Below are positions 44,681-45,243 of a DNA stretch of 51,761 nucleotides, piece after piece. Every line of letters starts with the position of its first letter. The first letter of the stretch is position 1. Source of the DNA: Patescibacteria group bacterium (GTDB taxonomy: Bacteria > Patescibacteriota > Patescibacteriia > UBA2196 > GWA2-42-15). A program made the position numbers and the translations under genes. A model generated the notes under the pieces. It saw nothing but the letters and a program-made list of their open reading frames with translations. It searched no databases and was not told the DNA's origin. The stretch spans positions 1-51,761 of the forward strand of contig JAKLID010000002.1 of NCBI GenBank assembly GCA_022709795.1, written 5' to 3'.

Positions 44681-44701
44681 AAAGACAAGAAAATCAAGCT
44701 C

Positions 44702-44750
44702 CAAGATACAAGATACAATTTTCAAATAATATCCAATATTAAAATTACCA
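44702..44750. repeat. Left heptad arm of cassette 3
   Basis: caagata|caagata|caatttt|caaataa|tatccaa|tattaaa|attacca. Confidence 0.75.
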
Positions 44751-44760
44751 ATAGTTTGCT

Positions 44761-45123
44761 ATGGATTGCTTGCCTCCCCATTATGATCTGGAAGAAAGAA
44801 CTACTCATTTTGCCAAAAGGGTTGTTGGATTGTGTGTGGCTCTGCCCAAGAATGAAATTAATCGCCCGTTAATCAGCCAGGTAATTAGATCAGCTGGTTC
44901 AATAGGGGCTAACTACAGAGAGGCCAATGATGCGCTAGGAGACAAAGATTTTATTCATAGAATAAAAATTGCGCGTAAAGAGTGCAAAGAAACACTGCAT
45001 TGGCTGGAAATTGTAGAAGAGGCCAATCCAGTGCTTGTCATGAGGATGCAGAATTTAAAACAGGAAGCGGTAGAATTGAAAAATATTTTATCATCAATTA
45101 TTATCAAAAAGGGAAAGAAGTAG
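44761..45123 (+). CDS. Four-helix-bundle protein (23S rRNA IVS protein / Avd-like family)
   Basis: RSAGSIGANYREANDALGDKDFIHRIKIARKECKETLHWLEI is the family core motif. Confidence 0.85.
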   Translation: MDCLPPHYDLEERTTHFAKRVVGLCVALPKNEINRPLISQVIRSAGSIGANYREANDALGDKDFIHRIKIARKECKETLHWLEIVEEANPVLVMRMQNLKQEAVELKNILSSIIIKKGKK

Positions 45124-45201
45124 TGATTTAAAGTTGAAATTTACAATTTATCCTAGGACATGTCATTCACGAATGACTGTGTCGAGCGACAGGATTTATT
45201 T

Positions 45202-45243
45202 GGAAATTGTATCTTGTTTTTTGGAAATTGTACTTGTATATTT
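45202..45243. repeat. Right heptad arm of cassette 3, running up to the ligA ATG
   Basis: ggaaatt|gtatctt|gtttttt|ggaaatt|gtacttg|tatattt. ttatttggaaattgtatcttg is the reverse complement (one mismatch) of the left-arm caagatacaattttcaaataa. Confidence 0.75.

Follow-up and report, generated by a model that had tools for sequence, protein, structure and literature searches.

The 51,761-nt stretch of contig JAKLID010000002.1 from a Patescibacteria group bacterium (hereafter the window) carries, immediately upstream of the DNA ligase gene ligA, a small gene for a four-helix-bundle protein enclosed between inverted arrays of 7-nt repeats, or heptads (cassette 3, positions 44684-45243), and, some 8 kb away behind an ABC permease gene, a stem of similar repeats that holds no open reading frame (ORF) (positions 36936-37060). 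We conclude, with a probability of roughly 70%, that the former is a copy of a selfish cassette of the intervening sequence (IVS) type, and that the latter is an ORF-less derivative of the same mobile cassette clade. A preliminary description of this DNA had proposed that empty and gene-bearing stems belong to one system, and this proposal was borne out by the ordered alignment of the empty stem to the arms of the clade, by shuffling tests and by the detection of further pairs of both kinds of stem.

In the element as proposed, a TIGR02436 (S23p/IVP) gene that lacks a promoter of its own would lie between terminal inverted arms, and each arm would be a tandem array of degenerate heptads, with the pattern CAANNNN in the left arm and NNNNTTG in the right. 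The parts of cassette 3 are as follows.

44695 to 44729, + strand: left arm, heptads CAAGCTC, CAAGATA, CAAGATA, CAATTTT and CAAATAA
44730 to 44760, + strand: leader from the left arm to the ORF start, conserved in the related locus L002 (left non-coding region identical at 67/77 positions)
44761 to 45123, + strand: IVP gene, encoding a 120-aa four-helix-bundle protein of PF05635/TIGR02436 with the motif RxxxSxxxNxxE
45151 to 45193, + strand: nested insertion of 43 nt between direct repeats ATTTA, holding a palindrome (45162-45177) and the hairpin TGTCG-AG-CGACA (45180-45191)
45196 to 45243, + strand: right arm, with the inverted repeat at 45196-45230 and heptads running on to 45243, followed by the ligA ATG at 45244

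The product of ORF 44761-45123 matched PF05635 (23S_rRNA_IVP) with an E-value of 1.6e-18 and 67.3 bits (cut-off 33.8), TIGR02436 ('four helix bundle protein') with 85.3 bits (cut-off 24), and the solved structure PDB 2rld with an E-value of 2.3e-14. Around this gene, the sequences at 44695-44729 and 45196-45230 form an inverted repeat of 35 nt with 86% complementarity, and the autocorrelation of the left arm was highest of all lags at lag 7 (0.49). Cassette 3 thus combines the features by which an S23p IVS is recognized, that is, a PF05635/TIGR02436 four-helix-bundle protein encoded within, an ORF bounded by long-stem terminal inverted repeats, and tandem heptameric repeats adjoining the ORF (44702-44729 and 45202-45243); its location is between a pilin-like gene and ligA, not in helix 25 or 45 of 23S rRNA.

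The arms agree in nearly every detail with the preliminary description, which had listed caagata, caagata, caatttt and caaataa on the left (here located at 44702-44729) and ggaaatt, gtatctt, gtttttt, ggaaatt, gtacttg and tatattt on the right (45202-45243). The 21-nt reverse-complement match with one mismatch that it reported lies inside the 35-nt inverted repeat (44709-44729 against 45196-45216), the lone mismatch being a U-G pair in RNA, and the right arm indeed abuts ligA, the ATG at 45244 coming directly after the last heptad (45243). The perfect palindrome GTCATTC-AC-GAATGAC is also present, at 45162-45177 instead of 45163-45178, one base away from the position first given. It belongs to the nested insertion 45151-45193, which is a single copy within the window and specific to the lineage of the window, being absent from the orthologous cassette of L002 (47 gap columns). 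Small GC-rich hairpins are nested at varied arm positions elsewhere (L051 10389-10425, L142 ~1430-1458, L145 ~588-604), and a comparable one stands at the apex of the stem of L057 (~3781-3800), amid AT-rich heptads; nested GC-rich hairpins in heptad arms are a recurrent secondary phenomenon.

Comparison with the L002 orthologue gave a ratio of nonsynonymous to synonymous divergence (dN/dS) of 0.089 for the cassette 3 protein, other IVP pairs giving 0.04-0.07, and the protein is under strong purifying selection. The nucleotide identity of the cassette between the window and L002, arms included, is 87-91%, and that of the flanks is about 75%. Because PF05635 proteins are homologous to Avd, the accessory protein of diversity-generating retroelements (DGR) (PMC10053308), with which they share the four-helix-bundle fold and the family, we considered whether the cassette 3 gene is an Avd gene and its repeats are DGR-related. 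The protein of another cassette in the window, cassette 2, gave a weak match to the Avd model NF033474 (26.8 bits), but none of the three IVP proteins of the window reached the equivalog cut-off of 80 bits, and that of cassette 3 gave no match at all. Neither a reverse transcriptase among the annotated neighbours nor a pair of template and variable repeats (TR/VR) among the direct repeats of the window was found, and a DGR origin is very improbable.

The second element of the proposed system is the following.

36936 to 37060, + strand: ORF-less stem of the cassette 3 arm family, its first base following the permease stop codon, with a 21-bp core helix (36957-36977/37022-37042)

Its inverted repeat measures 38 nt with 76% complementarity, and its predicted RNA fold (dG -33 kcal/mol, z-score -3.6) contains the 21-bp core helix. 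A gapless hairpin finder set at 80% or higher DNA complementarity missed this stem, which contains several G-U pairs, and the list of stems obtained with that finder is a lower bound. In the whole window, CAATTTCCAAATAA occurs at exactly three sites, 36957(+), 37029(-) and 45196(-), two of them in the ORF-less hairpin and one in the right arm of cassette 3; when up to 2 mismatches were allowed, 9 matches were found in the window against 1.98 expected.

Shared words of this kind could be due to chance between low-complexity spacers, since both regions are AT-rich and repetitive, and when the heptad blocks of the stem were shuffled with their words kept, a match of 16 nt was obtained in 5% of trials. 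The longest exact word common to the cassette 3 arms and the stem is likewise 16 nt, but this length was reached in 0 of 1000 dinucleotide shuffles, and in none of the other 28 window spacers did the match to the cassette 3 arms exceed 11 nt. When the stem was compared with the arms of five foreign cassettes, the local alignment score was 43 against shuffle maxima of 27-32, and other spacers of the window scored at most 34, the cassette 3 arms themselves excepted. In multiple alignment, the left half of the stem matches the foreign left arms (CAATTTCCAATTTCCAAATAAATT.CAA.TAA.CAA) and the right half the foreign right arms (TTTG.ATTTG...TTTATTTGGAAATTGT.TCTT), and the two halves align in the same order and polarity to the arms of the cassette 3 clade in L051, L063 and L075. 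By these results, in particular the shuffles, the other spacers, the foreign-arm score and the ordered two-arm alignment, chance is effectively refuted, and the word sharing noted in the preliminary description goes beyond what AT-rich sequence would give.

The arms are associated with the same gene in many genomes. More than 1100 homologues of the cassette 3 protein were found, many of them 65-89% identical across classes of Patescibacteria, in which the identity of ligA itself is only 45-50%. Proteins of the cassette 3 clade (79-89% identity) were found at no fewer than six unrelated sites, each time accompanied by the same arm words, and the terminal words AATTTCCAAGATACAATTTCC ... GGAAATTGTATCTTGGAAATT are common to all sites of the clade. 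The sites with proteins 79-85% identical are as follows.

L051 and L142: between DUF3467 and dnaJ
L141: before convergent miaA
L145: before an aminoacyl-tRNA synthetase gene
L062/L063 and L075: elsewhere

Over 84 loci we counted about 75 distinct neighbour contexts, all protein-coding; flanking inverted repeats with a z-score of at least 4 were detected for 66 of 82 cassettes, and the strongest periodicity was lag 7 in 51% of the flanks upstream of the gene and in 64% of those downstream, compared with 1% inside ORFs and 5% in random windows. Across different contexts, the 8-mer similarity of the arms rises with protein identity (Jaccard index from 0.025 to 0.132, rho 0.455, 0/999 permutations). 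The co-orientation with neighbouring genes (68/75 and 61/70) was not counted as evidence, genes of Patescibacteria being mostly co-directional. No relatives of the cassette 3 protein were found in viral contigs, so there is no sign of carriage by phages. As judged from these sequence comparisons, the arms and the gene travel and are passed on together as a single unit.

The same data bear on the explanation that the stems are regulatory or RNA-stability structures of the host, grown in place by heptad slippage, with the IVP as a host binder and the likeness between stem 36936-37060 and cassette 3 as convergence within one genome. Unpaired heptad tracts are common in the window (1724-1758, 22272-22306, 26058-85 and 42420-71), a regulatory role has been proposed for heptamers close to start codons in Nostoc and Beggiatoa, and the purifying selection on the IVP protein could be read in the same way. 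The stem, however, matches the arms of other genomes better than does any other spacer of its own genome, the same arms and ORF stand at unrelated loci in different genomes, and the orthologous spacers of relatives at 90% identity measure 6-31 nt and carry no heptads, which indicates insertion and not gradual growth. We regard growth in place as improbable.

The insertion of cassette 3 can be followed at the ligA leader, where the surrounding features are as follows.

44151 to 44630: pilin-like gene with an N_methyl motif, upstream neighbour of cassette 3
44646 to 44668, + strand: intrinsic terminator hairpin of the pilin-like gene, 9-bp stem with 5 GC pairs and a T-run (terminator scan)
44653 to 44680, + strand: ligA promoter, TTACCA-16 nt-TATAAT with the extended -10 TGgTATAAT at 44672-44680, 10/12 matches with TG (promoter scan)
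45244 to 47244, + strand: ligA, NAD-dependent DNA ligase with Pfam DNA_ligase_aden, OB, ZBD, HhH and BRCT domains

The terminator lies outside the cassette and marks its upstream limit, and its hairpin is kept in the related loci L001, L002 and L003, the ligA genes of which are 81%, 80% and 73% identical to that of the window, whose source genome is close to Candidatus Kuenenbacteria. Since both the terminator and the extended -10 box TGnTATAAT are conserved in all four genomes, cassette 3, which begins about 10 nt downstream of the ligA promoter, is placed inside the 5' untranslated region (UTR) of ligA; situated between the extended -10 promoter and the ligA ATG, and co-oriented with ligA, it must therefore be transcribed with the ligA leader. 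An internal promoter for the IVP gene was sought by promoter scan, and only weak matches inside the ORF were obtained, so that the gene was treated as promoterless. Among the four genomes, cassette 3 is present at the ligA leader in the window and in L002 only, the orthologous cassette of L002 encoding a protein 89% identical. The leader of L001 (2680-2758) holds no ORF, and an unrelated ORF-less stem, ctaaacacatgg ... ccattgtgtttaaatgtttaaac, stands there instead of the cassette; in L003 (3960-4003) there is neither cassette nor stem. Insertions seem to have entered the short spacer behind the ligA promoter more than once. With just 9 nt from the TATAAT box to the ATG in L003, the ancestral ligA mRNA probably had little or no leader, and against this background the 557-nt insertion in the ligA leader of the window is itself worthy of note.

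The ABC transporter operon, behind which the ORF-less stem is located, carries a cassette of its own.

35264 to 35720, + strand: cassette 2, with arms at 35271-35295 and 35696-35720, the IVP ORF at 35304-35699 and CACAAAA-type heptads

This cassette (457 nt) fills the gap between the ABC ATPase gene and the permease gene; in three relatives, with permeases 91%, 90% and 81% identical to that of the window, these two genes are 8 nt or 6 nt apart or overlap. On the downstream side of the permease gene, L056 (permease 91% identical) has a spacer of 31 nt, L057 an unrelated 143-nt stem of a different dialect, and L060 a 72-nt AT-rich spacer without a stem. The spacers of the relatives being short or different, both cassette 2 and stem 36936-37060 are lineage-specific gains. 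The stem thereby resembles a miniature inverted-repeat transposable element (MITE) in two respects: it is short and non-coding, bears terminal inverted repeats and has a longer coding relative, and there is insertion polymorphism between close relatives. Its parent carries no transposase, the sole ORF encoding the 120-aa TIGR02436 protein, for which no match to a transposase family was found.

The preliminary description had named a lack of further pairs as a refutation, and further pairs of ORF-bearing and ORF-less stems do exist in five other genomes: L072, L089, L117, L131 and L134 each hold a cassette together with one or two ORF-less stems of the same dialect. In L117, about 115 nt of the ORF-less stem can be aligned to the cassette once the ORF is taken out, the exception being a 9-nt gap where the two sides meet. 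In L072 (1471-1958), L089 (1477-1961) and L134 (1480-1966) the order is left arm, ORF, second left arm and right arm (L-ORF-L'-R), so that the left arm stands on both sides of the gene and a complete ORF-less stem comes directly after the IVP stop codon; recombination between these direct repeats could therefore remove the ORF precisely. The preliminary description had left two possibilities, gene loss from a cassette and a landing site awaiting a gene. Of these, gene loss or a non-autonomous derivative is the better supported, because arms and ORF travel together between sites, because the stem is absent from the orthologous 31-nt spacer of L056, and because the L-ORF-L'-R forms allow precise deletion of the ORF; the landing site is the less supported.

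The landing site can be extended into a different order of events, in which the heptad hairpin is the primary, self-spreading palindromic repeat, the ORF is cargo that landed in or near its loop, and 36936-37060 is an unoccupied site. The ORF-less stem of L117, which keeps nearly all of the non-coding cassette sequence up to the ATG and the stop codon, makes the ORF look like a discrete module, and the arrangement in L072, L089 and L134 is readable as an ORF beside a complete stem. In addition, ORF-less stems of other dialects (26094-26192, 50701-50799, L007 and L057) have no matching cassette in the window, and the ligA site of L001 is occupied by an ORF-less stem unrelated to cassette 3. Against this order of events, arms and ORF co-vary across contexts, and identical termini accompany one protein clade at six or more sites, which repeated independent capture would not give; no orthologous site was found that has the same stem both with and without the ORF. 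A hairpin-first origin is unlikely, although it is the strongest of the alternatives considered.

Returning to the IVS-type cassette and its ORF-less derivative, the predicted RNA fold of 44686-45250 (565 nt) closes with an arm-arm helix in both the minimum free energy and the centroid structure (dG -146.4 kcal/mol, z-score -4.0). In the transcript of the ligA leader, the two arms would accordingly be predicted to pair into a helix of about 35 bp, looping out the gene. By analogy with the rRNA elements, RNase III might cut the arm helix, so that the IVP message is set free and the ligA mRNA keeps only a short leader, near its ancestral state, and such an excision would explain the tolerance of insertions in tight operon spacers. 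Stem 36936-37060 would represent the left and right arms with the gene removed, inserted independently and lineage-specifically after the ABC permease gene; it may have arisen by recombination between repeated heptad arms or by MITE-like mobilisation. The IVP protein may serve the element and not the host, for instance by recognizing its own heptad arms.

Several points weigh against this interpretation. The stem is nearer to the arms of the L062/L063/L141 type than to the resident cassette 3 arms, and hence does not represent a duplicate of cassette 3. Neither the termini of the clade nor 36936/37060 showed an evident target-site duplication, the available empty sites being 9-19% diverged and their junctions imprecise. 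No transposase, recombinase or reverse transcriptase was found in the cassette or among its annotated neighbours. The synonymous divergence (dS) of the cassette between the window and L002 is 0.57, compared with 1.2-1.7 in the flanking genes, for which constraint or later exchange could account. The processing of cassette 3 by RNase III is pure analogy, and among the non-Watson-Crick positions in 69 arm pairs G-U (88) is as frequent as A-C (86), giving no sign of selection on the sense RNA; most mismatches in these pairs are transversion-type word swaps, and arm pairing may be a property at the level of DNA. Finally, the change may have run in either direction, by loss or by gain of the gene.

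Besides cassettes 2 and 3, the window carries a third cassette as well as other stems and repeats.

11218 to 11758, + strand: cassette 1, with arms at 11218-11273 and 11703-11758 in the CAGAAAC dialect and the IVP ORF at 11295-11669, downstream of a T2SS-F gene

Cassettes 1 and 2 have the design of cassette 3, carry proteins only about 30% identical and use different heptad dialects. The left-arm words of cassette 1 (ATTAGTAATCAGAAA) recur as ATTAGTAATTAGAAA and as TAGTAAC/TAGTAAT tracts at 22840-22856 and 26058-26085, which may be remnants of a cassette 1-type arm. Unpaired AATTCGC/AATTCGT heptad tracts are located at 1724-1758, 22272-22306 and 18168-18202, two of these sites being 91% identical over 35 nt; their heptad is the same as the arm heptad of Nostoc and Dolichospermum, and they may represent solo arms. 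A second family of ORF-less stems with AATTTTT/AAAAATT words was observed at 26094-26192, 50701-50799 and 49702-49753 of the window, and in L007 (1015-1134) and L057 (3716-3858). Two window copies of it are 76% identical over 99 nt; no ORF-bearing cassette matching these stems was found within the window, and similar stems occur in other Patescibacteria genomes. The hairpin at 49590-49700 was rejected as a member of the heptad-stem family, its units being of 10 nt (ATCTGTTCTA-type) and not 7, with a polarity opposite to that of the cassettes. The GC-rich palindromic element TTTCCCCTCCTCTCTGAGGAGGGG has six intergenic copies in the window (20108, 21470, 21597, 31373, 31512 and 51651), two of which form a perfect 24-nt inverted pair (21471-21494 and 21601-21624). 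A direct repeat of 144 nt with 83% identity (41575-41718 and 41875-42018, 300 nt apart) lies within an unannotated ORF of 293 aa on the minus strand (41458-42339) and indicates an internal protein repeat. Rfam analysis of the entire window detected tRNAs only, and neither arms nor stems matched a known RNA family; for the tRNA gene at 47339-47409, ARAGORN left the anticodon undetermined ('cc' at position 33), while Rfam scored it as a normal tRNA with 56 bits.

Similar arrangements were found outside Patescibacteria. A tblastn search of plasmids yielded homologues in Nostoc, Dolichospermum, Planktothrix, Gloeocapsa, Euhalothece, Anabaena, Bernardetia, Chlorohelix, Treponema and Monoglobus, and inverted tandem heptamers flank 12 of the 13 TIGR02436 genes sampled (L146-L158; Cyanobacteriota, Bacteroidota, Chloroflexota, Spirochaetota and Bacillota), the lone exception being Pseudanabaena L149, which adjoins cas1. 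The plasmid heptamers include (TAATTCG)4 ... (TTACGAA)4, (CAATTCG)4 ... (GCGAATT)4, (GATTAGT)17 and (TGGTCAC)13, some of them perfect arrays like the short tandemly repeated repetitive (STRR) sequences, and the gene contexts are helicase/methylase, DUF1156/HEPN, hsdS/hsdR, cas1/cas2 and recF. A broader proposal, plausible on this small sample and held tentatively at somewhat less than even odds, is that TIGR02436 genes in inverted heptamer arrays are pan-bacterial mobile cassettes without a transposase, of which the rRNA IVS would be a special case, that their ORF-less and one-armed remnants gave rise to many of the intergenic heptamer repeats that lack an explanation (STRR-type tracts of cyanobacteria, GGGAATC pairs of Xanthomonas and heptamers at start codons), and that the protein is a heptamer-specific factor for the arm dialect of its own cassette. 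It is supported by the arms at 12 of 13 genes, by the GGGAATC tract at XCC0516 and the GACAGAT heptamers of Coxiella, both described below, and by the arm dialect tracking protein identity. The literature found gives no account of such cassettes outside rRNA, and the papers on heptamer repeats, on IVP genes in cas loci and on candidate phyla radiation (CPR) rRNA insertions do not link the repeats to the gene.

If these readings are true, IVS elements are not rRNA-specific but also colonise mRNA leaders and operon spacers of streamlined Patescibacteria, even where neighbouring genes are usually separated by just 6-8 nt. 'Four helix bundle protein' genes in CRISPR-Cas, restriction-modification and other operons, hitherto read as functionally associated, may then be selfish insertions, and the decades-old puzzle of intergenic heptamer repeats would be tied to one gene family with a testable relationship between protein and repeat. 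The cassette analysis defines what is apparently a transposase-less mobile unit.

Among known systems, the Correia/NEMIS elements of Neisseria are MITEs co-transcribed with host genes, and the NEMIS hairpins are substrates of RNase III. Stem 36936-37060 resembles them as a short (about 125 nt) intergenic palindrome in an operon spacer, with a longer ORF-bearing relative and a possible long hairpin in mRNA; unlike them, it has a parent that codes for nothing beyond a 120-aa helical bundle, a target-site duplication was not observed, and the heptad arms vary in length instead of being fixed repeats. Integron gene cassettes carry a promoterless single ORF with an imperfect palindromic site, are co-oriented and are expressed from an upstream host promoter. 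Cassette 3 likewise has a promoterless, co-oriented ORF with a palindromic site, but it has arms on both sides, its sites are scattered and not arrayed, and neither integrase nor attI accompanies it.

The arms of the window share with the intergenic heptamer repeats (cyanobacterial STRR-type, Xanthomonas GGGAATC and Beggiatoaceae TAACTGA) the 7-nt period, the intergenic location and the frequent ending at start codons, and tracts of exactly that kind were seen beside the cyanobacterial TIGR02436 genes sampled. Those repeats have been treated as G-quadruplex or regulatory motifs without a link to gene cassettes, whereas the repeats of the window are degenerate, AT-rich and paired as arms. In Xanthomonas, 70-75 convergent (inverted) pairs of heptamers occur per genome (PMC4692102), and a GGGAATC tract overlapping the start of XCC0516, a crystallised S23p, is listed without comment in the supplement of the same paper.

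The closest likeness is to the 23S rRNA IVS with an S23p ORF (Leptospira, Coxiella burnetii, Brucella and Xanthomonas), which belongs to the same family (PF05635/TIGR02436) and size class (about 430-550 nt), carries its ORF within terminal inverted repeats forming a long stem, has heptamers adjoining the ORF in Coxiella, and is regarded, as cassette 3 is here, as a horizontally transferred selfish element. In the Coxiella IVS, the S23p ORF lies within a terminal stem of 28 bp that RNase III cleaves, and tandem GACAGAT heptamers (x3-4) lie beside the ORF (PMC4990558), and IVP ORFs have been found in insertions of 16S and 23S rRNA of CPR bacteria (bioRxiv 10.1101/2024.02.27.582315). The elements of the window differ in that the hosts are an mRNA leader and operon spacers (the 5' UTR of ligA and the ABC ATPase/permease spacer) and not helix 25 or 45 of 23S rRNA, that the arms are multi-heptad arrays instead of a simple 28-bp repeat, that the cassette 3 ORF is under strong purifying selection (dN/dS 0.09) while that of Coxiella is decaying, and that the genome also holds scattered ORF-less derivatives of these arms. 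Cassette 3 is probably an S23p cassette of the IVS type, of a form that inhabits operon spacers as well as the leaders of mRNAs and has ORF-less derivatives resembling MITEs.

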